Shown: in pieces, positions 33,293-44,594 of the stretch
How positions within the stretch are numbered: the first letter of the stretch is position 1
Layout of the letters: each line of letters starts with the position of its first letter
Sequence record: NC_052658.1
Direction: 5' to 3' (one strand)
DNA length: 64,000 nucleotides
Source of the DNA: Escherichia phage nepoznato
Made by a program: the position numbers and the translations under genes
The notes under the pieces: model-generated
Database searches by the model: none
What the model was told of the DNA's origin: nothing
The model's input: only the letters and a program-made list of their open reading frames with translations

Positions 33293-33661
33293 TTACTTTG
33301 TGCTGTTGTAAACGTTATCGCGTTCAACCATCACCGCAAGGCGGATCAGTTGATCAGTTGTATCGCGTAAATTGTCGGGCCATGTTTTACTGTTCCAGCT
33401 ATCCAGGTTTGATTGTATATAGGTTTCAATGGCTTGATCCATATTATCAAACAAGTTTTCCTCCAGGCTCTCGGCTGTTTCACACTGGAAAGCATTAGCG
33501 ACACTATTAATCAATAAGCAAGCCAGTAAATCAGCGTTGCGCCAATTTTTACGGATAGTTTCATCTGTCAGATAACCAACGAGATTAACCTTTGCGCCAG
33601 TGGTGGACGTTGCGATCACTTCTTGCGCTTTTTCAACTGCTTTAATTGCTGATTTGCTCAT
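33293..33661 (-). CDS. hypothetical protein (cassette 1 ORF)
   Basis: Track ORF 33293-33739 runs into the promoter; start moved to ATG (MSKSAIK) after RBS AAAGAGG. Confidence 0.5.
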   Translation of the reverse strand: MSKSAIKAVEKAQEVIATSTTGAKVNLVGYLTDETIRKNWRNADLLACLLINSVANAFQCETAESLEENLFDNMDQAIETYIQSNLDSWNSKTWPDNLRDTTDQLIRLAVMVERDNVYNSTK

Positions 33662-33677
33662 CTTCTTTTCCTCTTTG

Positions 33678-33739
33678 TGGGCTTGCTGTATTGCTCGCCC
33701 TACGTGATAAATAATAATATAAGGGTGATCCCGTGTCAA
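33678..33739 (-). promoter_or_regulatory. PeSL-like early promoter with weak leader hairpin (unit 1)
   Basis: Minus strand TTGACA, 17 bp, TATTAT, TATCACGTAGG, weak GC hairpin, RBS. Confidence 0.5.
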
Positions 33740-33877
33740 TAGGTAGAATTGTAAAGATTTGATAGTTTATCTCTTTGATGCTTTGTTGTTTGATAGATGT
33801 TAGCTATCAATATATAGCGGGGTCGTCCGGTGATTATCTTCCCTGTTTCCAGTGCCGCCCGTTCAATAAGCATAACA

Positions 33878-33905
33878 AAAAACAGGACAAAAACAAGCCC
33901 TGTTT
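33878..33905 (-). terminator. probable intrinsic terminator (minus strand)
   Basis: ACAGG...CCUGU hairpin followed by U-run on minus strand. Confidence 0.35.
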
Positions 33906-33913
33906 TGTAAAGA

Positions 33914-34117
33914 TTAGATGATCTGCATATCTTCCACGATAATTTCTAATTTCCAAACAAGATGATCTAAGCTCCCTGATAAAAATGATTCCGATACATA
34001 ACCGCCATCGGACACCGTAGCAAGGATCTCGCCATTTGCTTGCTCTTTGATTTGAACATCCAGGCGGTTAGCCTTTGCTTTGTTCAGGACGGCGATCAGG
34101 CGGTTAGCTGTAGTCAT
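33914..34117 (-). CDS. hypothetical protein (cassette 2 ORF)
   Basis: Start moved to internal ATG (MTTANRL) 20 nt after leader hairpin. Confidence 0.5.
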   Translation of the reverse strand: MTTANRLIAVLNKAKANRLDVQIKEQANGEILATVSDGGYVSESFLSGSLDHLVWKLEIIVEDMQII

Positions 34118-34140
34118 GATGTTTCTCTCTTCTGTTGTGA

Positions 34141-34197
34141 GCGGCACTATTGCCGCCCTACGTGATAAACTTTACTACCTGTTGCGCCTGCTGTCAA
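34141..34197 (-). promoter_or_regulatory. PeSL-like early promoter with leader stem-loop (unit 2)
   Basis: Minus strand TTGACA, 17 bp, TAAAGT, TATCACGTAGG, GCGGCA-AUAG-UGCCGC. Confidence 0.6.
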
Positions 34198-34198
34198 A

Positions 34199-34303
34199 CT
34201 ATTTTTTCTTTGCTTCCATTCGTCTAAGGTTACGGCTTGACTTGTTACGCAAGGCGCTCAAATCATCATAACCTTTAAAAGGTTGCATATTGTTCGGATT
34301 CAT
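34199..34303 (-). CDS. small basic protein (about 34 aa)
   Basis: Minus ORF MNPNNMQPFKGYDDL... with RBS AAGGGG; stop abuts -35 of unit 2; approximate. Confidence 0.3.
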   Translation of the reverse strand: MNPNNMQPFKGYDDLSALRNKSSRNLRRMEAKKK

Positions 34304-34313
34304 GCTACGCCCC

Positions 34314-34592
34314 TTAACGGTTATAAACGTCGTGAATAGTGATAAAGGCGCTACGACCATAAGCCGCCAAATCGGGATTGATCCAAGTGTTATCTAACAG
34401 TGTTTCAAGGACGATAGAATCATCATGAATAGCATCATAGAAATCAGGATGTATGATCGTTTCAATATCGTCCGGTGTTAGTTCCCAATTAAGGTTGCAA
34501 ACCGCTAAAACGTCTACCAATAACTTCCAATCTTGCAAATTAGTGGTTAATACTGTTTTCATTTCTTCGGTAGTGAGTTTAACGATGGTCAT
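34314..34592 (-). CDS. hypothetical acidic protein (cassette 3 ORF)
   Basis: 92-aa ORF about 20 nt after leader hairpin. Confidence 0.5.
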   Translation of the reverse strand: MTIVKLTTEEMKTVLTTNLQDWKLLVDVLAVCNLNWELTPDDIETIIHPDFYDAIHDDSIVLETLLDNTWINPDLAAYGRSAFITIHDVYNR

Positions 34593-34612
34593 GATATTTT
34601 CTCTTTTTGATG

Positions 34613-34673
34613 AGGCGGAAAGTGTTCCCGCTCTCGATGTGAAACATTATACAACACTAAAAACTGATTGCAA
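34613..34673 (-). promoter_or_regulatory. PeSL-like early promoter with leader stem-loop (unit 3)
   Basis: Minus strand TTGCAA, 16 bp, TATAAT, TTTCACATCGAGA, GCGGGAA..TTCCGCC hairpin. Confidence 0.55.
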
Positions 34674-34683
34674 GTGTTTTTAA

Positions 34684-35013
34684 TTATCGCTTGCTATTCT
34701 CTTTCTCTACTTCCCCGATAGCATCGCAAAATTGATTGATAACATCAGGGTGAACGTCAATAGCGTCAAACAATCCGCTATTAGTTGCATTTTGTAAAGC
34801 AATAGACAATTCAGCCAGGGCGTTCAATTGTTTTACACGGAATTGATCGCGGATTGAATCCATATATTCCATCACTGCACTTTCCAGTGTTTCCCATGTA
34901 GTCGCTGCACCTTCGCCTACAGTTACATCCCACAAATTAGACTCGATTTGAGTCAGTACTACAGTTGGGCGACCAGCAACAACACTGCGGGCTAATTCGA
35001 TTTCATTAAACAT
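34684..35013 (-). CDS. hypothetical protein (cassette 4 ORF)
   Basis: 109-aa ORF. Confidence 0.5.
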   Translation of the reverse strand: MFNEIELARSVVAGRPTVVLTQIESNLWDVTVGEGAATTWETLESAVMEYMDSIRDQFRVKQLNALAELSIALQNATNSGLFDAIDVHPDVINQFCDAIGEVEKENSKR

Positions 35014-35020
35014 TTTATTT

Positions 35021-35079
35021 TCCTCTTTGTGGGGAGAACTATTCTCCCCTTCATGTAAAACAGTCTACAGGTTTATTTC
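35021..35079 (-). promoter_or_regulatory. PeSL-like early promoter with leader stem-loop (unit 4)
   Basis: Minus strand TTGACA, 16 bp, TAGACT, TTTTACATGAA, GGGGAGAA-UAG-UUCUCCCC. Confidence 0.6.
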
Positions 35080-35089
35080 TCAATGTCAA

Positions 35090-35269
35090 CTATTTATTAT
35101 CGGGATTGTAAGCCAGGACCGCGCCACTTGCTTTCACCGCCCCAGCCTCATAGCTGCGTAAATCTTCCTCGGTGATATTCATTGCGATCACTTCCTCGAC
35201 CTCTACGCCAGTAGCAAGGGCGATCTCTTTGATGATATTTGATGTTTTGATAATGTCGATAGTTTTCAT
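35090..35269 (-). CDS. hypothetical protein
   Basis: Track ORF 35090-35317; start moved to ATG (MKTIDIIK) after AAGGGG. Confidence 0.45.
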   Translation of the reverse strand: MKTIDIIKTSNIIKEIALATGVEVEEVIAMNITEEDLRSYEAGAVKASGAVLAYNPDNK

Positions 35270-35279
35270 AGTAAGCCCC

Positions 35280-35399
35280 TTACAGAAGAATAGCCGCGAT
35301 GGTTGAAATGAAAGCAATAACAGCGACGATGATCATCATGTTTTTACCTTCGGTTACTGCTACGTTTTCGGTGCTGTATTCTACGGTATATTTGCTCAT
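35280..35399 (-). CDS. small tail-anchored membrane peptide (about 39 aa; cassette 5 ORF)
   Basis: MSKYTVEYSTENVAVTEGKNMMIIVAVIAFISTIAAILL; first ORF after unit 5 leader. Confidence 0.4.
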   Translation of the reverse strand: MSKYTVEYSTENVAVTEGKNMMIIVAVIAFISTIAAILL

Positions 35400-35415
35400 C
35401 TTTCTACCCTCGTTT

Positions 35416-35475
35416 GTGGTTGGCTGTTGTCGCCGCCCTATGTATTTAATATACACTACCACGGCAGCATTGCAA
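35416..35475 (-). promoter_or_regulatory. PeSL-like early promoter with weak leader hairpin (unit 5)
   Basis: Minus strand TTGCAA, 16 bp, TATATT, TACATAGG, GC-rich leader. Confidence 0.5.
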
Positions 35476-35488
35476 GTTTATTTTGCAA

Positions 35489-35779
35489 TTATTTTTCTTC
35501 TGTAAAAAGCCCATCATTAACAACGGCGGCGATGATTTCACGGGCCATTGATTCGGGAAACGGTAGGCTATAATCCTGGCTTGTTTCATCTTCGCAAGAT
35601 ACCCAATGATAAGCTAATGAATAATACCCCTTAGAAACGGTTTTCAGGCTAACAATGATCACGGTGTTTTGTTCGTTGGTAAACGTCGCCGTGATGGTCT
35701 GGTCGTTTTGCACCATATCCATCAAACGGGCGTTATCATTTACCAGGGAAAACATTAGCACGGTGTTAGCTTTACTCAT
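35489..35779 (-). CDS. hypothetical protein (cassette 6 ORF)
   Basis: Start moved to ATG (MSKANTV) 20 nt after leader hairpin. Confidence 0.5.
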   Translation of the reverse strand: MSKANTVLMFSLVNDNARLMDMVQNDQTITATFTNEQNTVIIVSLKTVSKGYYSLAYHWVSCEDETSQDYSLPFPESMAREIIAAVVNDGLFTEEK

Positions 35780-35799
35780 GATTGCATCCTCAAAGGGGC

Positions 35800-35854
35800 G
35801 CGGCACCATTGCCGCCCTACACGATAACTATAACACAATGTAAAACAGGATCAA
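35800..35854 (-). promoter_or_regulatory. PeSL-like early promoter with leader stem-loop (unit 6)
   Basis: Minus strand TTGATC, 16 bp, TATAGT, ATCGTGTAGG, GCGGCA-AUGG-UGCCGC. Confidence 0.55.
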
Positions 35855-36057
35855 CCTTTATTTTTCCACGGTGTCAGCTTGTTAATCATTGGTGATAAAT
35901 AGCGTTTACCAACGTAAAACAGTACGCCAACTGATGCAACGGCGGCGACCTCATGCATAGCCGACGGGAAACGGGTATCATAATAAGATCCAATAATAGC
36001 GATAGCGGCAACGGCTGCAACGTCGATAATGATTTTTTCTTGTTTTGCGGTGATCAT
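35851..36057 (-). CDS. small membrane protein (cassette 7 ORF)
   Basis: 68 aa with hydrophobic AAVAAIAIIGS and VAAVASVGVLFYVG segments. Confidence 0.5.
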   Translation of the reverse strand: MITAKQEKIIIDVAAVAAIAIIGSYYDTRFPSAMHEVAAVASVGVLFYVGKRYLSPMINKLTPWKNKG

Positions 36058-36079
36058 AATATTTACCTTTTTGTATGGT

Positions 36080-36136
36080 GGGGAACTATTCCCCGCCTGA
36101 TGTAATACAGTTTAACAGGTCCGGTTATGGTGTCAA
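36080..36136 (-). promoter_or_regulatory. PeSL-like early promoter with leader stem-loop (unit 7)
   Basis: Minus strand TTGACA, 16 bp, TAAACT, TATTACATCAGGC, GGGGAA-UAG-UUCCCC. Confidence 0.6.
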
Positions 36137-36142
36137 CCGTTT

Positions 36143-36328
36143 TTAAAGATATTTTATGCTAATAACGTTTTCCGGTTTAACCTTGTTATAATGTGCATCA
36201 ACATAGATCAAACCATCGTCAGAAAAGCCCAGGATCACGCCCTGCGCAATAAAACCGTATTCGTCACGGTAACGCACGGCTATTTTTAATGTTGCGCTGT
36301 ACGCTGTTTTAAGCTCGTTTAAAGTCAT
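36143..36328 (-). CDS. hypothetical protein
   Basis: 61-aa ORF after a terminator-like hairpin and RBS GAGGAT. Confidence 0.45.
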   Translation of the reverse strand: MTLNELKTAYSATLKIAVRYRDEYGFIAQGVILGFSDDGLIYVDAHYNKVKPENVISIKYL

Positions 36329-36357
36329 TTTTGTTTATCCTCTACATGTAAAAAGAA

Positions 36358-36381
36358 AGGGCGCTTGGTGCGCCCTTGTTA
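36358..36381 (-). terminator. intrinsic terminator or attenuator inside the array
   Basis: On minus strand AAGGGCGCACCAAGCGCCCUU then UUCUUUUU; near-identical to 33272 hairpin. Confidence 0.5.
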
Positions 36382-36383
36382 TG

Positions 36384-36530
36384 TTAATCCTCTAAATCCA
36401 TCCAATTATATTTGTCACTCTTCCCGCGCTTTGTTTTATTACGCTTGTCGCCTTTGCGGATCACTTCCTCGTTCCAGGCCTTGCGGATCTTGGAAGATTG
36501 AATTTTTTCTGCGCGATTAGATGTATTCAT
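36384..36530 (-). CDS. small basic protein (about 48 aa; cassette 8 ORF)
   Basis: MNTSNRAEKIQSSKIRKAWNEEV...; RBS AAGAGGAAAC; below track cutoff. Confidence 0.4.
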   Translation of the reverse strand: MNTSNRAEKIQSSKIRKAWNEEVIRKGDKRNKTKRGKSDKYNWMDLED

Positions 36531-36550
36531 TTTGTTTCCTCTTCATATGA

Positions 36551-36603
36551 GCGGCACCATTGCCGCTATATTGTTAATTTAAACTGTTTTGTAAAATTGT
36601 CAA
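36551..36603 (-). promoter_or_regulatory. PeSL-like early promoter with leader stem-loop (unit 8)
   Basis: Minus strand TTGACA, 16 bp, TAAATT, GCGGCA-AUGG-UGCCGC. Confidence 0.55.
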
Positions 36604-36609
36604 GGTTTA

Positions 36610-36960
36610 TCATTCATAAGAGCAAGCAAGGATCACGCCTGCAATATAAAGCCAATAATTTTCCCTTTCTCGTTGGATTTTATCATCGCGGCTATTCTCT
36701 TTAATGTATCCCCAGGATGTTAACAGGCGATCAATTTCCCAATATTCGAAAGCGATATTGATATCTGATGGCAAACCTTGTAACCAACTTGCCAGGGCGC
36801 GGACTATTGATCCGTTATATCGTTTTTGATTATCAGGGTACCAGTACTCTGATTCAAAGCGGCGCATCAGTTCGGCTATCTTCTCTTTTTCGCCAGTGAT
36901 GCCATAGTCGATTGATGCTAGGATGTAACCTTTAATTTCGTTTTGTGCTTTCATGGTCAA
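36610..36960 (-). CDS. hypothetical protein
   Basis: 116-aa ORF immediately downstream of 36967-37188 (co-transcribed). Confidence 0.5.
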   Translation of the reverse strand: MTMKAQNEIKGYILASIDYGITGEKEKIAELMRRFESEYWYPDNQKRYNGSIVRALASWLQGLPSDINIAFEYWEIDRLLTSWGYIKENSRDDKIQRERENYWLYIAGVILACSYE

Positions 36961-36966
36961 TCTCTC

Positions 36967-37188
36967 TTATTTACTTACAACCAGTTGATAACCGTTTTCT
37001 ACATTGCTAAACACTGTTAGCCCGTCGTCGCGCTCACTCATCAACAAGCAAGGCGATAACATGCGTTCGGCAGCTTTACACTCATTATAAGCGGCAGTGA
37101 TGTCTCCTGCTGCCTTGTCTTCTGTAGTAAATGTCTCGTTTACGTAAACCTGACCAGCAACAACGGCGACAATAGCAAAAGTAATCAT
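36967..37188 (-). CDS. hypothetical protein (cassette 9 ORF)
   Basis: 73-aa ORF with N-terminal hydrophobic segment. Confidence 0.5.
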   Translation of the reverse strand: MITFAIVAVVAGQVYVNETFTTEDKAAGDITAAYNECKAAERMLSPCLLMSERDDGLTVFSNVENGYQLVVSK

Positions 37189-37221
37189 GATGTTTCCTTG
37201 TTAATAGTGGTTTCTCTTCTC

Positions 37222-37259
37222 TATAGCGCCCATTATAAAGCGCTATAACGAAAAGTCAA
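37222..37259 (-). promoter_or_regulatory. sigma70 promoter with -10 inside an 8-bp-arm palindrome (operator-like; unit 9)
   Basis: Minus strand TTGACT, 16 bp, TATAAT; TATAGCGC-N10-GCGCTATA inverted repeat spans the -10. Confidence 0.55.
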
Positions 37260-37262
37260 CGA

Positions 37263-37430
37263 TTATTTTTTAAGGCTTAAAGTACCTAACTTGTCAGCAT
37301 GACGCAGACCAGGGAAGATCCATTTGCCTGATTCATCTTTTACCGGAGCTTTAAGCGTAGCGCCCAGGTTGGCGGCGTTAACTTTACGTGCAACGTTGCG
37401 AGCGGCTTCACGGGTAGCGCAAGTGATCAT
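37263..37430 (-). CDS. small protein (about 55 aa; cassette 10 ORF)
   Basis: MITCATREAARNVARKVNAANLG...; 20 nt after unit 10 hairpin; below track cutoff. Confidence 0.35.
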   Translation of the reverse strand: MITCATREAARNVARKVNAANLGATLKAPVKDESGKWIFPGLRHADKLGTLSLKK

Positions 37431-37454
37431 GATGTTTTCCTCTTCTCTTTGTTA

Positions 37455-37516
37455 GGCGGTGGACCATTCCGCCGCCTTGATGTAATACAGTTTACTCTTT
37501 TTCTTTCCGGTGTCAA
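37455..37516 (-). promoter_or_regulatory. PeSL-like early promoter with leader stem-loop (unit 10)
   Basis: Minus strand TTGACA, 16 bp, TAAACT, TATTACATCAAGG, 9-bp stem with G-U wobble and AUGG loop. Confidence 0.6.
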
Positions 37517-37526
37517 CAATCTTTTT

Positions 37527-37754
37527 TCAGATTAATTCATCCAGGCATAACAGGCGATCAACGTTGAGATCGGTTAGGCTGATGGTTGGCACCTGGTAGG
37601 ATTCGATGTACTCAACGCTCGACCATTGCCCGAAGTTAGCGACCGCCCAGCTATTCAAGGAAGAGTGAAGATCATCCCCTTTCTTCTCGGTGATAACTGC
37701 TACTACCTGGGAAGTGCCAACGGTGCCGGATACGCGAACAATATTGATAGCCAT
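37527..37754 (-). CDS. hypothetical protein (cassette 11 ORF)
   Basis: 75-aa ORF 20 nt after leader hairpin. Confidence 0.5.
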   Translation of the reverse strand: MAINIVRVSGTVGTSQVVAVITEKKGDDLHSSLNSWAVANFGQWSSVEYIESYQVPTISLTDLNVDRLLCLDELI

Positions 37755-37777
37755 GATTTTTCTCTCTTCTGTTAGGC

Positions 37778-37832
37778 GGGGCGCTTGTCGCCCCTATGTG
37801 ATACATCTTACACTAATTTTAAACGTTGTCAA
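37778..37832 (-). promoter_or_regulatory. PeSL-like early promoter with leader stem-loop (unit 11)
   Basis: Minus strand TTGACA, 16 bp, TAAGAT, TATCACATAGG, GGGCGACAAGCGCCCC hairpin. Confidence 0.6.
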
Positions 37833-37927
37833 ATTATTTTCTATTTCTTCCGTAATAGCCCAATTTATGATCTAAGCTAAAACGTTTTGTTAGATAGGTA
37901 GAACGATGTTTCATTTTTATATCTCCT

Positions 37928-38167
37928 TTACATTCCAACCATCGCGGCGCGGATCGCTGTAGTGCTATACTTGAAACCGTCTGGAGTTTTATCTTGTCCA
38001 GTTTGTTCCAGGAATAACATCATATCACGGGCAGCATCATTACGATTAGTATTAGCGGCGATAAATTCTTTCGCCAACCGATATAACGATTCATCGTTAT
38101 TAATCCAAAGGCTTACATTCCAATGAGTTTTATTTTTGTGACCTAAGAACATTTTTGATTTAGCCAT
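37928..38167 (-). CDS. hypothetical protein (cassette 12 ORF)
   Basis: 79-aa ORF. Confidence 0.5.
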   Translation of the reverse strand: MAKSKMFLGHKNKTHWNVSLWINNDESLYRLAKEFIAANTNRNDAARDMMLFLEQTGQDKTPDGFKYSTTAIRAAMVGM

Positions 38168-38192
38168 GATGTTAATCTCTTTTTTCAGTGAG

Positions 38193-38251
38193 GCGGGAAG
38201 TGTTCCCGCTCTCTATGTAATACAGTTTACTCTTTTTATTCGTGCTGTCAA
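38193..38251 (-). promoter_or_regulatory. PeSL-like early promoter with leader stem-loop (unit 12)
   Basis: Minus strand TTGACA, 16 bp, TAAACT, TATTACATAGAGA, GCGGGAA-CAC-UUCCCGC. Confidence 0.6.
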
Positions 38252-38257
38252 TGCTTT

Positions 38258-38623
38258 TTATAAATCTTTTTTACGTTTAACATCGCTCGCATGACTGTAT
38301 ACAGTGATCCCATTATCACGGCAAAAACGGGAAAGATACGCGCCGCGTGAAAACTCTTTACCTTCCATATTAATAACCTTGCTAAATTCTTCCAGGGCGA
38401 CGGTATCAAAATGATCACCATAACCATATTGAAACGGAACGTTAACCACCTCGATCAGTTTACCGCCGATCTCAACGTCAACCATTAAAGAAAAATATGT
38501 ATTACCGTAGGACTGTTGAAACCAACGACGGGCGCTAATATGCACCGCCTCAATGCTGGATAGTTCAATTTTAGCCGTGTCAGCCAGGGTAGCATAAGAG
38601 GAAACATTAATATTAATAGCCAT
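38258..38623 (-). CDS. hypothetical protein (cassette 13 ORF)
   Basis: 121-aa ORF. Confidence 0.5.
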   Translation of the reverse strand: MAININVSSYATLADTAKIELSSIEAVHISARRWFQQSYGNTYFSLMVDVEIGGKLIEVVNVPFQYGYGDHFDTVALEEFSKVINMEGKEFSRGAYLSRFCRDNGITVYSHASDVKRKKDL

Positions 38624-38645
38624 GATGATAACCTTTTTATTGTTG

Positions 38646-38701
38646 GCGGCACCATTGCCGCCCTACGTGATAAACTATAACAGAATTTTAAACAATGTCA
38701 A
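38646..38701 (-). promoter_or_regulatory. PeSL-like early promoter with leader stem-loop (unit 13)
   Basis: Minus strand TTGACA, 16 bp, TATAGT, TATCACGTAGG, GCGGCA-AUGG-UGCCGC. Confidence 0.6.
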
Positions 38702-38711
38702 ACGTTTTTTC

Positions 38712-38957
38712 TTAGTTTGCGAAATATGGCGCGGCGGCTGATGCCGTTAAGCTCCAAGTGATTTGACTATCGATCAAGTATTCTTCATTCTTGATCCGCA
38801 CGGTATCAATCGAGAAGTTACTAAAAGGTTTACTTTTAATTTTACGAACAACCGTTACACGACGGTTATTTTTCATCTCTTTTAACTGAATCCAGGCGAA
38901 ACCTTTTTCATTAACGAAAATTTCATTGTGGTTAGTGATAGATGATAAGTGTTTCAT
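38712..38957 (-). CDS. hypothetical protein (cassette 14 ORF)
   Basis: Start moved to ATG (MKHLSSI); the track N-terminus YHVGRR is just the translated leader. Confidence 0.5.
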   Translation of the reverse strand: MKHLSSITNHNEIFVNEKGFAWIQLKEMKNNRRVTVVRKIKSKPFSNFSIDTVRIKNEEYLIDSQITWSLTASAAAPYFAN

Positions 38958-38980
38958 GATTTTTCTCTCTTCTGTTTTGA

Positions 38981-39040
38981 GCGGTGGACCATTCCGCCGC
39001 CCTACGTGATACATATTACTACTTTTTCAAACGTTGTCAA
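38981..39040 (-). promoter_or_regulatory. PeSL-like early promoter with leader stem-loop (unit 14)
   Basis: Minus strand TTGACA, 16 bp, TAATAT, TATCACGTAGG, 8-bp stem with AUGG loop. Confidence 0.6.
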
Positions 39041-39049
39041 CAATCTTTT

Positions 39050-39331
39050 TCAACTATATGATCCGCACCGTTCGCAATAGTGATCTTCTTCCTCTTCCAC
39101 TACTTGACCGACAAAATGATCAACCTTTGATTTCAGGCTTTTATAATTACTTTCTACTTCCTGTAGTCGTCGTTGGTAGTATTCCAGGGCTTGCACATAT
39201 GCCGCTTGTTCTGTTTTAGCTTGCATCGCTAAATTCATGCCGCGCGTGTCATCATACAACCAATAACCATCATTGCATTCACTGATTGACAGTGTGGGGC
39301 TTAGTTTTTCGTGACGGATAACCTTGCTCAT
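39050..39331 (-). CDS. hypothetical protein with C-terminal Cys pair
   Basis: Track ORF 39050-39364; probable start MSKVIRHEKL; ends CERCGSYS. Confidence 0.45.
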   Translation of the reverse strand: MSKVIRHEKLSPTLSISECNDGYWLYDDTRGMNLAMQAKTEQAAYVQALEYYQRRLQEVESNYKSLKSKVDHFVGQVVEEEEDHYCERCGSYS

Positions 39332-39341
39332 AGTGTGCGCC

Positions 39342-39446
39342 TTATAGAATGATTGAAACAACAATTGCTACAGTGATCCACACTGGAACGGCTAACAAAA
39401 TAGCGTTAATCGTTCCAACCGTCAAGCTATTTCCTTTATTAATCAT
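39342..39446 (-). CDS. small membrane peptide (about 34 aa; cassette 15 ORF)
   Basis: MINKGNSLTVGTINAILLAVPVWITVAIVVSIIL; RBS AAGAGG; approximate. Confidence 0.35.
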   Translation of the reverse strand: MINKGNSLTVGTINAILLAVPVWITVAIVVSIIL

Positions 39447-39475
39447 TGTAAGCCTCTTGCATAATTTCACTATGA

Positions 39476-39532
39476 GCGGCACCATTGCCGCCCTACGTGG
39501 TAAATATTATGCCAGTGGCGGCGATATGTCAA
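39476..39532 (-). promoter_or_regulatory. PeSL-like early promoter with leader stem-loop (unit 15)
   Basis: Minus strand TTGACA, 17 bp, TAATAT, TACCACGTAGG, GCGGCA-AUGG-UGCCGC; 42-bp core identical to unit 18. Confidence 0.6.
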
Positions 39533-40086
39533 AGACTATTTTCAAAGTTTTCTAGGGCGATCCTTTTTTCTTCCTCTGTCGGCTGATAATCAGGAAAAGC
39601 ATCAGCACACAACAACGGCGGGATCTCTTCGTACTCTTCCTCTTCCGTTGTCTCCTCGTCTTCCTCCTGGGCTATGGCTGCAATTTTGGCTAATTTTCTT
39701 TCAGCTTGAATCAATTTACCATCAAGTACGTTTTTTGCCATGTTGTAAGCGGTCCAGGTGATGCGCTTACTTTCCAGGGCCTGATCGAGCGCCGCTATCT
39801 TGCTGGGGTATTCATCCAGGACACGAAAAGCCGGATCAACTTTGTACAAAGGATTATCTTTCGCGCCGTCGCTCGCATCTTCCGCACTGGATAAATCAGC
39901 GTTACCATTTGCCAGCCAGCCAGGGCGCACATAACGCGCTTTTATGTTGCCGTTACTACGTGCTAACCTGTTACCTATTTGCTCACCGCTATATCCCGTG
40001 GATTCATCGATAAGATGATCGGGAATGATGCGCGGATCATCTGCTTCATGTTTTACCCAAGACTGGATCACATATTCGCGGCCCAT
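39529..40086 (-). CDS. hypothetical protein with acidic C-terminal region
   Basis: Start moved to ATG (MGREYV) after AGGTGG; co-transcribed with 40088-40345. Confidence 0.5.
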   Translation of the reverse strand: MGREYVIQSWVKHEADDPRIIPDHLIDESTGYSGEQIGNRLARSNGNIKARYVRPGWLANGNADLSSAEDASDGAKDNPLYKVDPAFRVLDEYPSKIAALDQALESKRITWTAYNMAKNVLDGKLIQAERKLAKIAAIAQEEDEETTEEEEYEEIPPLLCADAFPDYQPTEEEKRIALENFENSL

Positions 40087-40087
40087 A

Positions 40088-40345
40088 TTAACCACCTTTT
40101 TTCAACAATCGGCATACTTTAAAAAGACTTGCTGAATCCTTGCAAGGGTAGAAAGATGTACGATAATCACGTACGCCAACCTTGCGGATCTCGATGTTTT
40201 CGCATGTTGTTTGATCAAAGATATTTATTTCATCACGCCCCCTTATATAAACATAGTGGGGATGTATTAACGCATATTTTGCTAATCTGTAAAAAGCGTT
40301 ATCTTTGAACGCGATCACGTGACCTTTTAATTTGATGTAAAACAT
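40088..40345 (-). CDS. hypothetical protein (cassette 16 ORF)
   Basis: 85-aa ORF after RBS AAGGTGG. Confidence 0.5.
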   Translation of the reverse strand: MFYIKLKGHVIAFKDNAFYRLAKYALIHPHYVYIRGRDEINIFDQTTCENIEIRKVGVRDYRTSFYPCKDSASLFKVCRLLKKGG

Positions 40346-40363
40346 TCTACCACCTTACAAATA

Positions 40364-40418
40364 GCGGGAACTATTCCCGCTTTATGTAACATATTAACAA
40401 ATTAGTCGTTAATGTCAA
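40364..40418 (-). promoter_or_regulatory. PeSL-like early promoter with leader stem-loop (unit 16)
   Basis: Minus strand TTGACA, 16 bp, TAATAT, TTACATAAA, GCGGGAA-UAG-UUCCCGC. Confidence 0.6.
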
Positions 40419-40421
40419 GCC

Positions 40422-40694
40422 TTAAAGCAAAAACGCTACATCTTGCGCTTTTAATGTAGTGTCAACCATTTTTGGGCTTTTATAATCAACAAAACGCGCG
40501 GTTTTTTCAATAGCAAAACCGAGATAATCTTGTTTATTGAATTTACATTCTTTCTTAAATGTTTCCCGCGCCACGGTGATCGCTGCGTCCAGGGATAAAC
40601 GCCCGTCAATGTTGATATTTGCGAAAGATCCGCCACCGCTCATAGGTTTACCAGTGGTGCCAGCTACGATCATTGTTGCGCTATATGATGCCAT
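40422..40694 (-). CDS. hypothetical protein (cassette 17 ORF)
   Basis: Start moved to ATG (MASYSATMIV). Confidence 0.5.
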   Translation of the reverse strand: MASYSATMIVAGTTGKPMSGGGSFANINIDGRLSLDAAITVARETFKKECKFNKQDYLGFAIEKTARFVDYKSPKMVDTTLKAQDVAFLL

Positions 40695-40719
40695 GATTAT
40701 AATCTCTCTTCTGTTGTGA

Positions 40720-40780
40720 GCGGCTGAACCATTCCGCCGCCCTATGTGATACATCTTATCAGGTTGTTGGTTGTTGTCAA
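40720..40780 (-). promoter_or_regulatory. PeSL-like early promoter with leader stem-loop (unit 17)
   Basis: Minus strand TTGACA, 16 bp, TAAGAT, TATCACATAGG, 8-bp stem with AUGG loop. Confidence 0.6.
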
Positions 40781-40786
40781 TACTTT

Positions 40787-40984
40787 TTATTCTATTCCTG
40801 CAATCTGATTAACGCGTTTGCATTTTGTAGCGTGCTGGTCTTCTGTAATTACTCCCATTTCTAACAGTGAATCAATGAAAGATAAAACCGTTTCATGATC
40901 ATCCTGGGGATGACTGAACTCAGTAAAACCGTTTACTACCACGTTTATTTGTCCAGCTTTCGCCACAATGTGCAATGTTGCCAT
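40787..40984 (-). CDS. hypothetical protein (cassette 18 ORF)
   Basis: Start moved to ATG (MATLHIV). Confidence 0.5.
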   Translation of the reverse strand: MATLHIVAKAGQINVVVNGFTEFSHPQDDHETVLSFIDSLLEMGVITEDQHATKCKRVNQIAGIE

Positions 40985-41005
40985 GATTTTAACTCCAAAT
41001 AATGA

Positions 41006-41062
41006 GCGGCACCATTGCCGCCCTACGTGGTAAATATTATGCCGCCACCTGGCGAACGTCAA
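41006..41062 (-). promoter_or_regulatory. PeSL-like early promoter with leader stem-loop (unit 18)
   Basis: Minus strand TTGACG, 17 bp, TAATAT, TACCACGTAGG, GCGGCA-AUGG-UGCCGC. Confidence 0.6.
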
Positions 41063-41171
41063 TCACTTTTTCAATCTTTTTTATTTTCTTTTTGCTTGCT
41101 ATATATAAAAGAAAGGGCTATCATCTTTCTACCGCGCCAACCTGGGCGCACATCAAAGAAAGGGCGATACC

Positions 41172-41438
41172 ATGACAAATACTACATTACACCTTATGCA
41201 CTCATTGGGCTGGCAAGGCGGCACGGTGCACCAGGTAGCAAGCGCAACGGGCTTAAAGGTTGAAACCGTTCTCAACCTATCAGATTATAAGGTCGAGGAT
41301 AGTTATCAATTACAAAGTTACACGGGCGGTTTTACCTGGGCGCGTGAAGGTGGGAAAGAAAGCAATATACCACATTGGGGAAAAGGTGATATTCATTTTT
41401 GGCTAGGTGTCCTGACCTGGCAAGAAAACAAAAAATAA
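41172..41438 (+). CDS. hypothetical protein
   Basis: 88-aa plus-strand ORF diverging from the minus array. Confidence 0.45.
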   Translation: MTNTTLHLMHSLGWQGGTVHQVASATGLKVETVLNLSDYKVEDSYQLQSYTGGFTWAREGGKESNIPHWGKGDIHFWLGVLTWQENKK

Positions 41439-41440
41439 TC

Positions 41441-41469
41441 TTGACAAGCCCAGGGATCGGGCTTATACT
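41441..41469 (+). promoter_or_regulatory. sigma70-type promoter with PeSL-like leader, no downstream ORF
   Basis: TTGACA, 17 bp, TATACT, then GTTTTACATACAG and GC-rich hairpins; no plus ORF of 20 aa or more before 42.2 kb. Confidence 0.5.
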
Positions 41470-41477
41470 GTTTTACA

Positions 41478-41600
41478 TACAGAAGAGGAAGCGCCACCCC
41501 CACGGCGTAAAGGCGGGGCTAACATACCAGGGGCACTGGTTGGAAGGTTGATCGCCGGTAGGCTGGGCGCTATATATTTGTAAAGAAATGTAAAGATAAA
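41478..41600 (+). ncRNA. candidate structured non-coding transcript or leader
   Basis: About 80-nt GC-rich segment flanked by GCGCC...GGCGC with internal hairpins, downstream of the consensus promoter; not tRNA-like. Confidence 0.25.
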
Positions 41601-41699
41601 ATAATCGCTTGCTTTCCTGGCTGGATCTGTTATTCTTATTACATGGCGAGGGGACACGGGAGCGCGAGACAAACACCGCCCCTGCGCGTCATTCTCTAA

Positions 41700-41720
41700 A
41701 TGAGAATGATTATCATTTAC
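41700..41720. promoter_or_regulatory. Fur-box-like palindrome (AATGAT-T-ATCATT)
   Basis: GAGAATGATTATCATTTAC; perfect 6-1-6 inverted repeat. Confidence 0.35.
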
Positions 41721-41759
41721 TTTATTAAATAAGAATCAATCTCATTTATAAACCTAAAT

Positions 41760-41778
41760 GCGAATCATTATCATTTGC
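41760..41778. promoter_or_regulatory. Fur-box-like element
   Basis: GCGAATCATTATCATTTGC. Confidence 0.3.
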
Positions 41779-42159
41779 ATTTCCACATGAGAACTCTTCT
41801 CATTCCCATCTGCATAAATTTTTGTAAACTTTAAATTTTGCTTTTGTACTTTCATTTTTGTAAAAGCAAAAAAACTTTAAATACTGTGGGCGCGCAAAAT
41901 TTTTAAAATTTTCCTTGACTTTTGAGTTTTGTTTTGTATCTGACATTTTAAGATAATTTTCCTAAACTTTAAATTTTGGTTTTCAACTTTCACTTTTGTA
42001 AATTCTTAAAAAGTTTAAATAATTTGAGGGATTTTTGAGATAATGGATAGTGGGAATTTGATATAACCTTTAATCTTATTAGTAGACCTTCAGGAACCCA
42101 CCTAGATCGAATCCTGGTGATGCAAACTGAAAAAGACAAGGGTTTGTATAGGACAAAAT

Positions 42160-42195
42160 AATAGGCTCTCTACGGTGCTGTAGGAGCCTTATTTC
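42160..42195 (+). terminator. long hairpin with U-tract at convergent junction
   Basis: AGGCTCTCTAC...GTAGGAGCCT stem followed by TATTTCT. Confidence 0.5.
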
Positions 42196-42244
42196 TGTGC
42201 TACAAAGTGACACCTTTGTTCTAAAAATGAAAAAAGTTAAAATA

Positions 42245-42787
42245 TCACAAATATCGTCTTTGCGGTATTTTGTCTGGGAAAAGTATTTCGATCAGTTTGT
42301 TATGATATTTACCTAAAAGATTTTGCCCTTTCCAGTTGACCGGATTTAGCACCCCTGGTTCATACATCCCCATTCCAATTCCGTAAACCTTATCGTAGGG
42401 GCTTGCTTCAACAAACGTTTTGTATTGGTAAAGGTGTAAGTCTGCATACAAATCTGGATTCTGTACATATTTCAAGCATAAACCTCGCATAACAATACGC
42501 TCACGGTTCTCTTCCCATACGTTGTTATCAAAATCCGACACTGCCCTACCCATACGTTTGTAATAAGCTTGGATCTTCTCATCTTTCCGTATCAAACTAT
42601 GAGTCAGAATAGCCTGTGCAGTGTTGTGGTCATTAAAAAGCAAAGCTTTACGCCACATCATATATTGTTCGACACAATTAAATGTTTGATTGTAACCTGG
42701 TTCGGTTTCTGTAAAGGGTGCAATATACCAATTACTAAACACATCTTTATGTGAAAAGAAGAATACATAATCATCAGTTATTCGCAT
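42245..42787 (-). CDS. NADAR-domain (YbiA-like, DUF1768) protein
   Basis: FFFSHKDVFSNWY, EQYMMWRKA, YGIGMG and WKGQNLLGKYHNKL blocks matching the NADAR/YbiA family. Confidence 0.7.
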   Translation of the reverse strand: MRITDDYVFFFSHKDVFSNWYIAPFTETEPGYNQTFNCVEQYMMWRKALLFNDHNTAQAILTHSLIRKDEKIQAYYKRMGRAVSDFDNNVWEENRERIVMRGLCLKYVQNPDLYADLHLYQYKTFVEASPYDKVYGIGMGMYEPGVLNPVNWKGQNLLGKYHNKLIEILFPDKIPQRRYL

Positions 42788-42998
42788 TTTTCATACTCTC
42801 CAAAATTTCACGTTGCCCTTTCTGATAGGCTTTCATCAGGACCACTTTAAGGTTTGTCTCCAAAAGATCTTCATTGTAGTTATACCGCTCCACAACATAT
42901 GTCAATTCATCATAAAGATCAAGAACGGGGTAGAATACAGGGTTATCTGCTAAACGTGCCATAGTTTCTCCTTTGTTAGTCCATCCACCAGTAGCCAT
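42774..42998 (-). CDS. hypothetical protein
   Basis: 74-aa ORF. Confidence 0.45.
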   Translation of the reverse strand: MATGGWTNKGETMARLADNPVFYPVLDLYDELTYVVERYNYNEDLLETNLKVVLMKAYQKGQREILESMKNANN

Positions 42999-43341
42999 AA
43001 ACTGCGTCTGCGTCGATGAGTTTGTGTTTGTTGTTCCGCATGTAGTCTAAGATAAGTAGACGTTTATTGTATCTGGAGAGATTATGACCCTCTTTTCCGC
43101 CATAGTCAAAATATTTTGCAAGATCTTTACACTCAAACAAAATCAGTTCGGGAGTTTCTTCACACTGGTCTGTCTGGTACACTTGACGAATGATCATGTA
43201 TACATCATCGTCTTCCGCTAAATGCTCTACTGGTCCACATCCAGCAGGAACAAATTCATAGTCCCATCGGATCAGATGTTTCTCTACTGCTTCAAAGAAA
43301 TCCATCCTTTCGTTGCGCATAATTTGAACGTCAACTAACAT
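42976..43341 (-). CDS. hypothetical protein
   Basis: 121-aa ORF. Confidence 0.45.
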   Translation of the reverse strand: MLVDVQIMRNERMDFFEAVEKHLIRWDYEFVPAGCGPVEHLAEDDDVYMIIRQVYQTDQCEETPELILFECKDLAKYFDYGGKEGHNLSRYNKRLLILDYMRNNKHKLIDADAVYGYWWMD

Positions 43342-44519
43342 GTTTCCTCCTGTAATGTTCCACCATAAAGTTTATAAATGTTTTGTATTGATGCCATGCA
43401 AGATAACTCCGCTGTCTCTGTGTAGCCATCTGGCATAGCATATTTGCTCACTGCTTCCGTGTGAAGGACACGCTTACAACGCTTTTCTGCATCTTTGCAT
43501 TGCTTCACAGTAGGGAAGTGCCACACTTGGCCCTGTTTCATAGTAAACACATTACGACTATTTTGTTCTTTGATACGGCGATTACTATTATTAGCAATAC
43601 CAAACTTCAGTGCACAGATAATATCTTGCTCATCGTAAATATAATTAATGTAGGCTTGTTGTTGATTTTTGTTAGCACACTGCGGACAACCTTGTCCTAT
43701 GTTTAAAAGGTTGTTTGCAGTTCCTTTTTGTTCCCCATGACTCTTACATACATATTTAAACTTACCTATAGAAGATGGTTTGGTAATCCATCCTATCCAA
43801 ACATACCCTTTCTTTTCTATTTTCTTTCTTACTTTATACGTAATCTGTTCCGCTGTATACCTATAAGATGCAGAGCAACGGCAGGGTAAGTGTCCATATT
43901 TAAGATTGCTACGCGTCATATAAAACTTACCATCACATAGTCCAGCTTTAACATATTCATCATGAGAACAAACAGGACACTGAACCATCCATACCGGATC
44001 ACACCCTTTACGTTCCCCCGTGTTGGTGAAAATAGTGCCTTCCTTAAACTTCCCTGTAGAAAAGAAATCTGCAATATGTTGATCGTCGGGTATTGTTTGT
44101 GACCTCCTTGTGTTCTCATACCTACATATAAGACAACCACTGCCATGTTTAAAACTATCAAAACTACATGTATTCCATTCATGACCATACCTACAACGTA
44201 GCATCATTTTCGTACGCGCACCTTTAAACGGTTCTACGATACCTATGATGGTAATCCCCTTAGCTTCCGCTATTGGTTTACATTCAGTAAGGTATGTTTT
44301 TAAATCTTTAATTTGACCTGCACACATAGGACAACCACTACCACGTTTAAAACTGTTAATACTTGTAGTATCCCATTTATAACCACAATGACACAACAAA
44401 TCAAGTTTTGTATTAACCCCTTTCCATTCTCCCGTCCATCCTAAGATTTGGATTTGCTTACTCTCTGCTATGGGTTGACACTCTTCTTTATATTGTTCCC
44501 ATGATTTTGGTGCTGCCAT
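43335..44519 (-). CDS. Cys-rich protein with three tandem zinc-ribbon-like repeats
   Basis: Three repeats of GW.G......L.C.CG..W.T....F..GSGC..C in 394 aa; function unknown, possibly nuclease-associated. Confidence 0.5.
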   Translation of the reverse strand: MAAPKSWEQYKEECQPIAESKQIQILGWTGEWKGVNTKLDLLCHCGYKWDTTSINSFKRGSGCPMCAGQIKDLKTYLTECKPIAEAKGITIIGIVEPFKGARTKMMLRCRYGHEWNTCSFDSFKHGSGCLICRYENTRRSQTIPDDQHIADFFSTGKFKEGTIFTNTGERKGCDPVWMVQCPVCSHDEYVKAGLCDGKFYMTRSNLKYGHLPCRCSASYRYTAEQITYKVRKKIEKKGYVWIGWITKPSSIGKFKYVCKSHGEQKGTANNLLNIGQGCPQCANKNQQQAYINYIYDEQDIICALKFGIANNSNRRIKEQNSRNVFTMKQGQVWHFPTVKQCKDAEKRCKRVLHTEAVSKYAMPDGYTETAELSCMASIQNIYKLYGGTLQEETC

Positions 44520-44554
44520 CTGTTGCTCCTCTTATTAATCTGATATCCATACAA

Positions 44555-44580
44555 GAGAAAACCCGCCGAAGCGGGTTTAA
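44555..44580 (-). terminator. intrinsic terminator (minus strand)
   Basis: On minus strand AACCCGC-UUCG-GCGGGUU followed by UUCUC. Confidence 0.5.
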
Positions 44581-44594
44581 TAAATCTCAACTTA

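Follow-up and report, generated by a model that had tools for sequence, protein, structure and literature searches.

The 64-kb window of Escherichia phage nepoznato analysed here (the whole stretch taken from sequence record NC_052658.1, to which all coordinates refer) contains an array of about 7.4 kb (33662–41062, minus strand) made of 18 promoter units, each followed by one or two small open reading frames (ORFs). A unit comprises a sigma70 promoter, a start-site box, in most cases a leader hairpin, and an A-rich, unstructured leader of about 20 nucleotides (nt) with a Shine-Dalgarno (SD) sequence that ends at the ATG. About 100 bp per unit are conserved among the cassettes, and similarity is limited to those units. 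An earlier, first-pass annotation of this DNA had listed the 18 units; all of them were recovered at the same positions on the minus strand by strand reading and by a promoter scan (TTGACA-like hexamer, spacer of 16–18 nt, TAnnnT), and the promoter, stem-loop and small-ORF layout that it had described is real.

Organization of the Units

The units follow one another at intervals of 257–886 bp. Their -35 boxes are TTGACA in 13 units, TTGCAA in two, and TTGACG, TTGACT and TTGATC in one each; the spacer measures 16 nt in 14 of the 18 and 17 nt in the other four, and the -10 box is TAnnnT in every case. With 9–11 of 12 consensus matches, these are the near-consensus promoters that had been predicted. 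Just before each -35 box, by a few nt, the stop codon of the preceding ORF sits in an A-rich, UP-element-like tract. Between the -10 box and the stem lies the start-site box, (G/T)TA(T/C)CAC(A/G)TA, which has pyrimidine-purine steps at positions 5–6, 7–8 and 9–10. The composite pattern of promoter plus box was matched 13 times in the window, against 0.00 expected from 100 dinucleotide shuffles.

To describe the hairpins, a covariance model (R1) was built from the leader units and scanned against the window with filters off. It matched 16 of the 18 units (three of them outside the training set) and one copy on the plus strand, and nothing else in the 64 kb, so that 16 of the 17 matches fall within 7.4 kb. 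In what follows, each unit is given with its -35 box, spacer length and -10 box and with the 5' arm, loop and 3' arm of its hairpin; the higher coordinate is the first base of the -35 box. Unit 1 (40985–41062; TTGACG-17-TAATAT) has the box TTACCACGTA and the hairpin GGGCGGCA/ATGG/TGCCGCTC at 41023–41004 (43.1 bits), together with an extra small hairpin in the spacer (41055–41042). The same arms recur in unit 4 (39447–39532; TTGACA-17-TAATAT; loop ATGG; 43.2 bits) and in unit 17 (34118–34197; TTGACA-17-TAAAGT; loop ATAG; 48.3 bits). Other hairpins with an ATGG loop are those of unit 5 (38958–39040; TTGACA-16-TAATAT; GGGCGGCGGA/ATGG/TCCACCGCTC, with an internal C.A mismatch; 40.5 bits), unit 6 (38624–38701; TTGACA-16-TATAGT; GGCGGCA/ATGG/TGCCGCC; 45.8 bits), unit 9 (37431–37516; TTGACA-16-TAAACT; AGGCGGCGGA/ATGG/TCCACCGCCT; 38.3 bits), unit 11 (36531–36603; TTGACA-16-TAAATT; AGCGGCA/ATGG/TGCCGCT; 26.2 bits) and unit 13 (35780–35854; TTGATC-16-TATAGT; GGCGGCA/ATGG/TGCCGC; 31.9 bits), the last being outside the training set. 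Three-nucleotide loops occur in unit 2 (40695–40780; TTGACA-16-TAAGAT; GGGCGGCGGAA/TGG/TTCAGCCGCTC; 34.4 bits), unit 3 (40346–40418; TTGACA-16-TAATAT; AGCGGGAA/TAG/TTCCCGCT; 23.4 bits), unit 12 (36058–36136; TTGACA-16-TAAACT; GGCGGGGAA/TAG/TTCCCCACC; 37.2 bits), unit 15 (35014–35089; TTGACA-16-TAGACT; GGGGAGAA/TAG/TTCTCCCC; 30.7 bits), unit 7 (38168–38251; TTGACA-16-TAAACT; GCGGGAA/CAC/TTCCCGC; 28.4 bits) and unit 16 (34593–34673; TTGCAA-16-TATAAT; GCGGGAA/CAC/TTTCCGC; 25.1 bits; outside the training set). Longer loops close the hairpins of unit 8 (37755–37832; TTGACA-16-TAAGAT; GGGGCG/ACAAG/CGCCCC; 27.1 bits) and unit 18 (33662–33739; TTGACA-17-TATTAT; GGGCGAGC/AATACA/GCAAGCCC with an internal loop; 18.2 bits). 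The first-pass annotation had assigned a hairpin to all 18 units, which holds for the 16 matched by R1. The other two are unit 10 (37189–37259; TTGACT-16-TATAAT), which has no leader hairpin and carries an 8-bp inverted repeat, TATAGCGC/GCGCTATA, around its -10 box, and unit 14 (35400–35475; TTGCAA-16-TATATT; box AAATACATAGG), whose hairpin GGCGGCGACAACAGCCAACC is degenerate (-7.7 kcal/mol).

The copy on the plus strand stands alone at 63043–63118 (TTGACA-16-TAAGAT; GCGGGGAA/TAG/TTCCCCGC; R1 match at 63071–63107, 35.1 bits). The gene that it drives codes for a TerC-family integral membrane protein (63043–63997, including the unit; Pfam E 9.9e-41), and thus the module is not confined to small ORFans.

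Genomic Context of the Array

Region 33600–41100 matched 216 records when compared by megablast with the GenBank phages, the top match being Escherichia phage SKA64 (Phapecoctavirus, Stephanstirmvirinae, 152 kb; 90% identity and 85% coverage in 10 pieces). At this place the annotated relatives SKA64, tuntematon, phiWec179, nieznany and PsgM04F carry a run of 25–40 short hypothetical genes on one strand, and the counterpart in phAPEC8 corresponds to genes 258–268 plus 001–016. The length of the region varies among relatives from 6.3 to 11.6 kb. These matches assign the window to a phAPEC8-like myovirus of the genus Phapecoctavirus (about 150 kb) and not to a T4-type phage, the group that the first-pass annotation had drawn on for comparison, and the array is, on the same comparison, a hyperplastic block of ORFans whose content differs between relatives. 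Neither a description of the module nor transcription-start data were found in the literature on Phapecoctavirus, Stephanstirmvirinae, rV5-like phages and phAPEC6.

Structure and Covariation of the Leader Hairpin

The presence of the hairpin was assessed in a non-circular way by choosing sites by their promoter alone and seeking the hairpin in the next 36 nt. A hairpin with a minimum free energy (MFE) of -10 kcal/mol or lower followed the -10 box at 14 of 15 array sites, versus 3.1% of random 36-mers; among promoter-like sites elsewhere in the window it was found at 2 of 11.

For the analysis of covariation, 120 instances were harvested from the window, five relatives and IMG/VR contigs, representing 74 unique leaders and 40 distinct hairpins. 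In an unfitted MAFFT alignment, 77.2% of the cells were paired in the majority register, as compared with 64.5% in shuffles (reached in 0 of 500), and the covariation score was 0.302, versus 0.135 after shuffling and at most 0.146 with slid partners. Alignment to the covariance model (140 matches, 84 distinct) gave 0.337, versus 0.146 shuffled and at most 0.152 slid; one of its pairs is CG in 42 cases, GU in 19, AU in 13 and GC in 10, with no unpaired cell. RNAalifold returned no consensus from the raw MAFFT alignment, in which the register is shifted by 3-nt versus 4-nt loops, and for this reason the covariance model and explicit pair counting were used instead. The earlier claim that stems vary and stay paired thus withstood both the shuffle and the slide controls. 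As judged from these alignments, it is pairing, rather than sequence, that is conserved in the hairpin.

These compensatory changes bear on the idea that a dimeric repressor shuts off the early promoters by binding the element, at about +4 to +25, as an operator in duplex DNA. Such a position would be like that of lacO relative to its promoter, and most copies do share a GCGG...CCGC core, but the spacing of the half-sites varies from 8 to 12 nt, the core is missing in the classes GGGGCG/CGCCCC, GGGGAGAA/TTCTCCCC and GGGAGAC/GTCTCTC, and the changes keep pairing rather than sequence. We consider an operator very improbable.

The argument for an RNA-level structure from G-U wobbles was weaker than had been stated. 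The stem cited for it, GCGGUGGA/UCCGCCGC, is a reading of the antisense (plus) strand; the transcribed strand reads GCGGCGGA/UCCACCGC and contains a C.A mismatch. Over the 40 distinct hairpins, 12 internal G.U pairs were counted versus 6 A.C mismatches, and the sense and antisense folds are similarly stable (-13.3 versus -12.4 kcal/mol).

The geometry of the hairpin is tightly set. Of 66 unique units, 47 have a stem that starts 10–11 nt past the -10 hexamer (overall range 8–15), and stems measure 6–11 bp, the main loops being AUGG, UGG, UAG and AUAG. The arms are polar (G-then-C), with 81% purine in the 5' arm and 18% in the 3' arm. From the end of the hairpin to the ATG there are 17–25 nt, in good agreement with the roughly 20 nt with a ribosome-binding site noted in the first-pass annotation, and both the SD and the start codon are unpaired in the MFE folds. 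Across stems that differ in sequence and length the apex is conserved as AAUAGUU, CAAUGGUG or GAAUGGUC (also AAUGGU), whereas other classes have the unrelated loops ACAAG, CAC, ATAC and AATAAA.

The conserved apex raises the possibility that a trans-acting protein of the phage or the host binds it and co-regulates the cassettes, by timed shut-off, through translation or by a nut/boxB-like modification of the polymerase. The apex is conserved over different stems and phage families, the polarity of the arms is not explained by stability alone, and a box plus hairpin after early promoters recalls the nut sites of lambda. However, no candidate binding protein was identified, the classes with unrelated loops are maintained all the same, and common descent with gene conversion among units can account for the conservation of the apex. 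There is also no boxA-like motif and no Rfam match: a scan of 30–45 kb of the window at E<=1 returned only one sub-threshold chance match, to the L2 leader. A dedicated binding protein is, on balance, not a likely explanation. Two further candidates were rejected. An upstream ORF starting at the AUG of the AUGG loop has frames and stops that are inconsistent among units, and loops devoid of AUG are common; likenesses to CsrA sites, boxA and the lambda operator, searched for by eye, rest on motifs that are absent from most units.

Promoter Linkage, Predicted Start Site and Termination

The hairpin is strictly linked to a promoter. Among 139 R1 matches, 106 had a promoter with at least 9 of 12 matches at the exact expected offset. 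Inspection of the others revealed an offset of 1–3 nt or a variant -35 box (TTGCAA, TTGCAC, TTGCTT or TTGATC) with a good -10 box, and the sole promoterless match was a reverse-strand echo of a palindromic stem. Since the hairpin is never found alone, it is unlike a free-standing terminator or recombination site, which would be expected to stand alone at times.

The RNA polymerase of E. coli prefers to start 7–8 nt past the -10 box, at a purine preceded by a pyrimidine. A pyrimidine-purine step occupies positions 7–8 in 62 of 71 units, and based on this preference and this step we infer that +1 is at position 8 after the -10 box, position 6 being less likely. In 51 of the 71 the predicted unpaired 5' tail would then be 3–4 nt long.

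As had been claimed, the hairpin is not followed by a U-tract. In the 66 unique units, the 8 nt that follow the stem contain a mean of 1.1 T and 4.4 A; the maximum is 4 T, and no unit reaches five. Where the array needs them, U-tract terminators are used, at 36377–36357, 33906–33879 and 33284–33262. These features argue against the leader hairpin being an intrinsic terminator. This matters for comparison with the promoter early stem-loops (PeSLs) of phages RB49 and phi1, in which a strong sigma70-like promoter is combined with a stem-loop (Arbiol et al., 2010; PMC2839356), as it might be thought that the hairpin works as a terminator or attenuator of the PeSL type, damping transcription from upstream cassettes so that each would be mainly self-driven. 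A PeSL stem-loop of RB49 cut lacZ read-through about as well as rrnB T1 (PMC2839356), and the hairpins of the array share with PeSLs both the G-then-C polarity and the placement between ORFs, from stop codon to promoter. Nevertheless, the hairpin lacks a U-tract and has an A-rich 3' flank, canonical terminators with U-tracts occur three times in the array, and the hairpin does not occur without a promoter. In addition, the hairpin lies downstream of its own start, where a strong terminator would abort the transcript of its own cassette. Termination or attenuation is for these reasons unlikely to be its role.

Turnover of Cassettes among Relatives

Comparison of the array with six relatives by BLAST revealed collinear blocks interrupted by cassette-sized indels. 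An additional stretch of about 3 kb is present in SKA64 exactly at unit 17 (34197), and this phage lacks the cassette of the 81-amino-acid (aa) ORF (38712–38957), while the cassette of the 109-aa ORF (34684–35013) is missing in all six. Units make up 30% of the array and contain 20 of the 31 distinct breakpoints (binomial p=9.5e-5). Slots were treated as orthologous where both the upstream flank and the downstream ORF were the same. Such slots always contain a hairpin, though not always one of the same class: in 11 of 23 ORF clusters the class varies from phage to phage, and ahead of the 90-aa ORF (40422–40694) six phages have five different hairpins between them. The same hairpin classes reappear before unrelated ORFs. 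The comparison of cassette content that the first-pass annotation had proposed therefore showed indels, replacements and breakpoints falling at the units, as they do in PeSLs. In these alignments, such a pattern is the mark left by recombination or gene conversion among units, under a selection that would keep the hairpin whatever its sequence.

The same pattern could be produced if the element acted on the DNA, as a hairpin or cruciform that is a preferred site of recombination, template switching or nicking and mobilizes the cassettes, its presence in the transcript being incidental. Both breakpoints and swaps of hairpins cluster in the units, one crossover of an RB49 mini-circle was mapped inside a PeSL loop (PMC2839356), and the two strands fold alike, an A.C mismatch on the sense strand being G.T on the other. 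Against this explanation, the position of the hairpin is fixed to the -10 box and to the SD within 1–2 nt and its link to the promoter is absolute, neither of which is needed for a recombination signal; breakpoints are spread across the whole unit and not only the hairpin, and no dedicated recombinase is adjacent. Moreover, stems of 6–10 bp with loops of 3–4 nt extrude poorly from duplex DNA. We regard a DNA-level function as distinctly improbable.

Units and Cargo Shared with Jumbo Phages

Other Phapecoctavirus records contain no homolog of the 109-aa protein, and its homologs are found only in jumbo phages of about 350 kb infecting E. coli and Klebsiella (Asteriusvirus: PBECO4, slurp01), Erwinia and Serratia. 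With the halves of this ORF and the 79-aa DUF7249 ORF (37928–38167), at least two cargo families are common to the window and Asteriusvirus-type jumbo phages. The units are shared as well. Unit 15 (35089) best matches genomes of the Asteriusvirus type, in up to 16 places per genome, and 5 kb of slurp01 (78322–83474) contain six R1 matches at E<1e-3 with the same layout, AAAAAGTAC-TTGCAA-16-TATAAT-GTTTTACATCGAGA-GCGGGAA..TTCCCGC-SD-ATG; one of these units drives a homolog of the 79-aa DUF7249 ORF. A Klebsiella jumbo phage has an array of the same box and leader hairpin, with TTGCAA as -35 box and a perfect TATAAT -10 box. In the window, the two units flanking the 109-aa cassette, 15 (35089) and 16 (34673, with its TTGCAA box), are exactly of the jumbo type. 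Since jumbo-type units frame this cassette, the matches suggest that a whole unit-ORF-unit block was imported.

One unit was also seen in the 94.7-kb contig IMGVR_UViG_3300023100_000003 (TTGACA-17-TAGAAT GTACCACATA GGGAGAC/AATAAA/GUCUCUC). Megablast matched this contig to none of the GenBank phages, and it hints at further undescribed lineages using the module.

A bolder extension of these results would make the unit a standardised inter-family "plug", common to three or more unrelated lineages of large coliphages (Phapecoctavirus, Asteriusvirus and, partly, rV5-like phages), through which early genes would be traded by homologous recombination in co-infection. Its AAU(G/A)GU apex and its purine-to-pyrimidine polarity would be read by one shared trans-acting factor, of which a host protein of RNA binding or decay would be the most plausible, and all cassettes would form a single post-transcriptional regulon. 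We hold this proposal to be possible, although doubtful.

Cargo Genes and Neighboring Regions

The array contains 25 small ORFs of 26–185 aa, more numerous and more variable in size than the 18 ORFs of 35–120 aa first counted. Twenty-four PHROG families were matched among them, with E values down to 1e-113, all but one without a stated function. The statement that the cargo has no recognisable domains is nearly right, as these are mostly PHROGs of unknown function, with the exception of four ORFs with Pfam matches (T7 gene 1.1 family, DUF1033, DUF7249 and a weak match to Gp58). A cargo mostly of unknown function and including tiny hydrophobic peptides, as had been anticipated, was thus borne out; the further suggestion that these are host-takeover or anti-defence genes is speculative.

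From the head of the array, all on the minus strand, the ORFs not yet located are those of 65 aa (40787–40984), 85 aa (40088–40345) and 185 aa (39529–40086), the last of which (phrog_16605, unknown function) follows directly after the 85-aa ORF without a promoter of its own; a hydrophobic peptide of 34 aa (39342–39446); a 93-aa DUF1033 protein (39050–39331); and ORFs of 121 aa (38258–38623), 26 aa (37834–37914, basic), 75 aa (37527–37754), 55 aa (37263–37430), 73 aa (36967–37188) and 114 aa (36610–36954). The basic 48-aa ORF (36384–36530) is a member of the T7 gene 1.1 family (PF08200, E 4.9e-13), an early-gene family shared with T7-like podoviruses. It is followed, inside the array, by a canonical and bidirectional-looking intrinsic terminator (36357–36377; an 8-bp GC stem, then TCTTTTT). 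Downstream of this terminator lies a 61-aa ORF (36143–36328) with a good SD and no recognisable sigma70 promoter. Then come ORFs of 68 aa (35851–36057, with two hydrophobic segments), 96 aa (35489–35779), 39 aa (35280–35399, a peptide hydrophobic at its C-terminus), 59 aa (35090–35269), 92 aa (34314–34592), 34 aa (34199–34303, basic) and 67 aa (33914–34117). A second canonical terminator (33879–33906; 10-bp stem, then a T-run) precedes the last unit, whose 122-aa ORF (33293–33661) ends at the third one (33284–33262).

These ORFs are mutually unrelated (11% mean column identity). This result is the one that bears on a recent tandem duplication with no expressed genes, which the first-pass annotation had named as a refutation of its own reading, or on promoter-like sequence arisen by chance. 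Units do repeat every 257–886 bp, but no more than about 100 bp of each are alike, chance falls far short of producing the pattern, and the unrelated ORFs and their PHROG family matches refute duplication; we give this explanation virtually no credence.

A non-coding stretch of about 800 bp (41441–42240, plus strand) heads the array. It begins with a strong promoter at 41441(+) (TTGACA-17-TATACT), whose spacer contains a stem-loop (41446–41464), a geometry like that of the RB49 PeSLs; this stem-loop also looks like the terminator of the plus-strand ORF 41172–41438. Downstream of the promoter are a GC-rich segment, three 29-nt iterons with the inverted repeat TAAATGAGAATGATTATCATTTA (41696–41804) and AT-rich 72-nt repeats (41817–42026). 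As a whole, 41441–42240 resembles a replication origin under transcription from a strong promoter. A structured non-coding RNA after the 41441(+) promoter received no support, the fold of the GC-rich part having z=0.04.

Beyond the origin-like region (42245–45734, minus strand) are genes for a NADAR-domain protein (E 1.8e-35), a CapR-domain/zinc-finger protein and an AAA-type ATPase. NADAR enzymes can reverse the ADP-ribosylation of DNA by DarT, and the NADAR gene is on that account a candidate anti-defence gene. The matching block of SKA64 is annotated with a putative homing endonuclease, which may be the CapR-domain protein.

Proposed Mode of Action

We propose that the array consists of autonomous early-expression cassettes in which a 5' hairpin stabilises or insulates the mRNA and the unit of about 100 bp serves as a recombination patch, a reading to which we assign a probability of roughly 0.55. 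Host RNA polymerase with sigma70 would initiate 8 nt (or 6 nt) past the -10 box, at the conserved purine, and with +1 at either position the hairpin would form 3–6 nt from the 5' end of each cassette mRNA. There it may hinder 5'-end-dependent decay by RppH and RNase E, in analogy with the leaders of ompA, papA and T7 gene 10. By sequestering the sole GC-rich segment, it may also, again by analogy, leave the ribosome-binding site open whatever the cargo, and expression of a cassette would become independent of both its cargo and its neighbors. With about 100 bp conserved per unit, the units could serve as patches for homologous recombination or gene conversion, which would delete, insert and swap cassettes among relatives and link their gene pool with that of the Asteriusvirus jumbo phages.

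Base pairing at the 5' terminus reportedly acts as a block to RppH and to the 5' sensor of RNase E, as is said to have been found by Emory, Bouvet and Belasco in 1992, by Bouvet and Belasco in 1992 and by Arnold and coworkers in 1998. Entries in the reference list of PMC3997798 likewise point to 5'-terminal base pairing as controlling the access of RNase E and RppH. Since such pairing would block both enzymes, a stabiliser or insulator is the most economical role for the hairpin, and by this analogy probably the correct one.

Several points weigh against this reading. No start-site, half-life or expression data were found for this phage group, and both "early" and the position of +1 are consequently deduced. 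With +1 at position 6, the tail would be 5–6 nt long, which is probably more than full protection allows; stem-loops set back from the 5' terminus are readily bypassed by RNase E (PMC9943677), and the exact start thus matters. A pure stability role explains neither the purine-then-pyrimidine polarity of the arms nor the conserved apex AAUAGUU/AAUGGU. Some strong promoters in the window lack any hairpin, and rV5-like phages (Vequintavirinae) have the promoter box, with leader hairpins that are only sporadic and short. Finally, the sense strand of one abundant class contains a C.A mismatch and, given the G.U and A.C counts and the near-equal stability of the two strands, the wobble asymmetry cannot settle between RNA and DNA.

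The proposed cassettes would extend beyond the T4-like phages the PeSL idea of mobile regulatory cassettes that shuffle orphan genes, with the structured element placed inside the mRNA. By the sequence evidence, unrelated phage families on the same host share a regulatory unit and some of its cargo, a concrete route for the horizontal spread of early genes, possibly of host takeover or anti-defence, and the 25 cargo ORFs are marked as the set most worth screening. The unit itself is a compact (about 80 nt) natural module of strong promoter, 5' hairpin and ribosome-binding site, and its more than 40 natural stem variants would be useful for tests of 5' hairpins in mRNA fate and for phage engineering. 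The element is not categorically new; its sharing across families and its compensatory stem variants make the array directly testable, and its mechanism is a proposal.

Comparison with Known Systems

The array was compared with other systems that combine early promoters, hairpins or mobile small genes. Lambda nut sites also have a conserved box and a short hairpin in the nascent early transcript, but they come in two copies instead of eighteen, and the array has no boxA consensus, no GNRA-like pentaloops and no identified N-like protein; the likeness is a resemblance only. Integron cassettes and morons are, like the array, small unrelated genes that are individually mobile and come with a repeated structured element (attC) or with their own promoter (morons). 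Unlike in integrons, every cassette of the array has its own promoter, there is no attC-like imperfect bottom-strand hairpin, and the flanking genes examined included no integrase. Unlike in morons, the flanking units are conserved, and mobility is presumably due to general homologous recombination.

The leaders of ompA, papA and T7 gene 10 resemble those of the array in having a GC-rich hairpin of 6–10 bp a few nt from the 5' end, behind which the leader is unstructured and includes the SD. They belong to single genes and are not part of a repeated mobile module, and in the array 3–6 unpaired nt are predicted before the stem, whereas the hairpin of the T7 gene 10 (phi10) leader, GGGAGACCACAACGGUUUCCCUC, starts exactly at +1 of the transcript made by the phage RNA polymerase. 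In some units, the phi10 leader is closely resembled by both the G-rich 5' arm and the 3' arm, GGUUUCCC(G)CUC. The start box plus hairpin (CACATA-GGGCGGGAAAUGGUUUCCCGCUC in relatives; e.g. 39012–38975 of the window) resembles the end of T7 class III promoters with the phi10 leader (CACTATA-GGGAGACCACAACGGUUUCCCUC). No gene for a single-subunit RNA polymerase was seen in the window, and the T7-like design of the 5' hairpin is probably convergent.

In jumbo phages of the Rak2/CBB/GAP32/PBECO4 type, RpoD-like promoters with UP-like elements have been described before short early ORFs (PMC5259590). These clusters are the same kind of promoter array, and slurp01 and the Klebsiella phage share with the window the box, the hairpin and some cargo. 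The published accounts give the promoters only, with neither a leader hairpin nor an exchange with phages of about 150 kb.

The closest parallel is the PeSL, with which the first-pass annotation had equated the cassettes. In RB49 and phi1, the stem-loop occupies one of five positions around the promoter that define subclasses, the commonest lying between the -35 box and the -10 box, and both terminator activity and the formation of mini-circles have been demonstrated experimentally (PMC2839356); PeSLs were later extended to other T4-like phages only, PST/T4 and nt-1/KVP40 (Comeau et al., 2014; PMC4122927). The two systems have in common a near-consensus sigma70 promoter behind an A-rich tract that holds the stop codon of the previous ORF, a G-then-C stem-loop, a conserved leader with an SD, a cargo of ORFans in hyperplastic regions, and indels and replacements of cassettes between close relatives that are bounded by units. 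They differ in lineage (Stephanstirmvirinae here, Straboviridae for the PeSL phages) and in the position of the stem-loop, which lies here in the transcribed leader, 10–11 nt after the -10 box, and in RB49 mostly in the spacer. The units of the RB49 hyperplastic region read AAAAAGTTGTTGACA-GGGGatcaccgatCCCC-TATAAT followed by a conserved, unstructured leader, and R1 had no match in 30 kb of that region (E<=1, filters off). Conversely, the RB49-type geometry occurs in the window at three promoters only, 37259, 41062 (by its extra spacer hairpin) and 41441(+). Terminator activity, shown for PeSLs, is unlikely here in the absence of a U-tract. The equation with PeSLs was accordingly sustained for architecture and evolutionary behavior, and failed for the position of the stem-loop, its likely role, the sequence family and the lineage. 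With the PeSL reading partly supported in this way, the array is best described as an analogue or variant of PeSLs, a set of leader-hairpin promoter cassettes in a non-T4 lineage.

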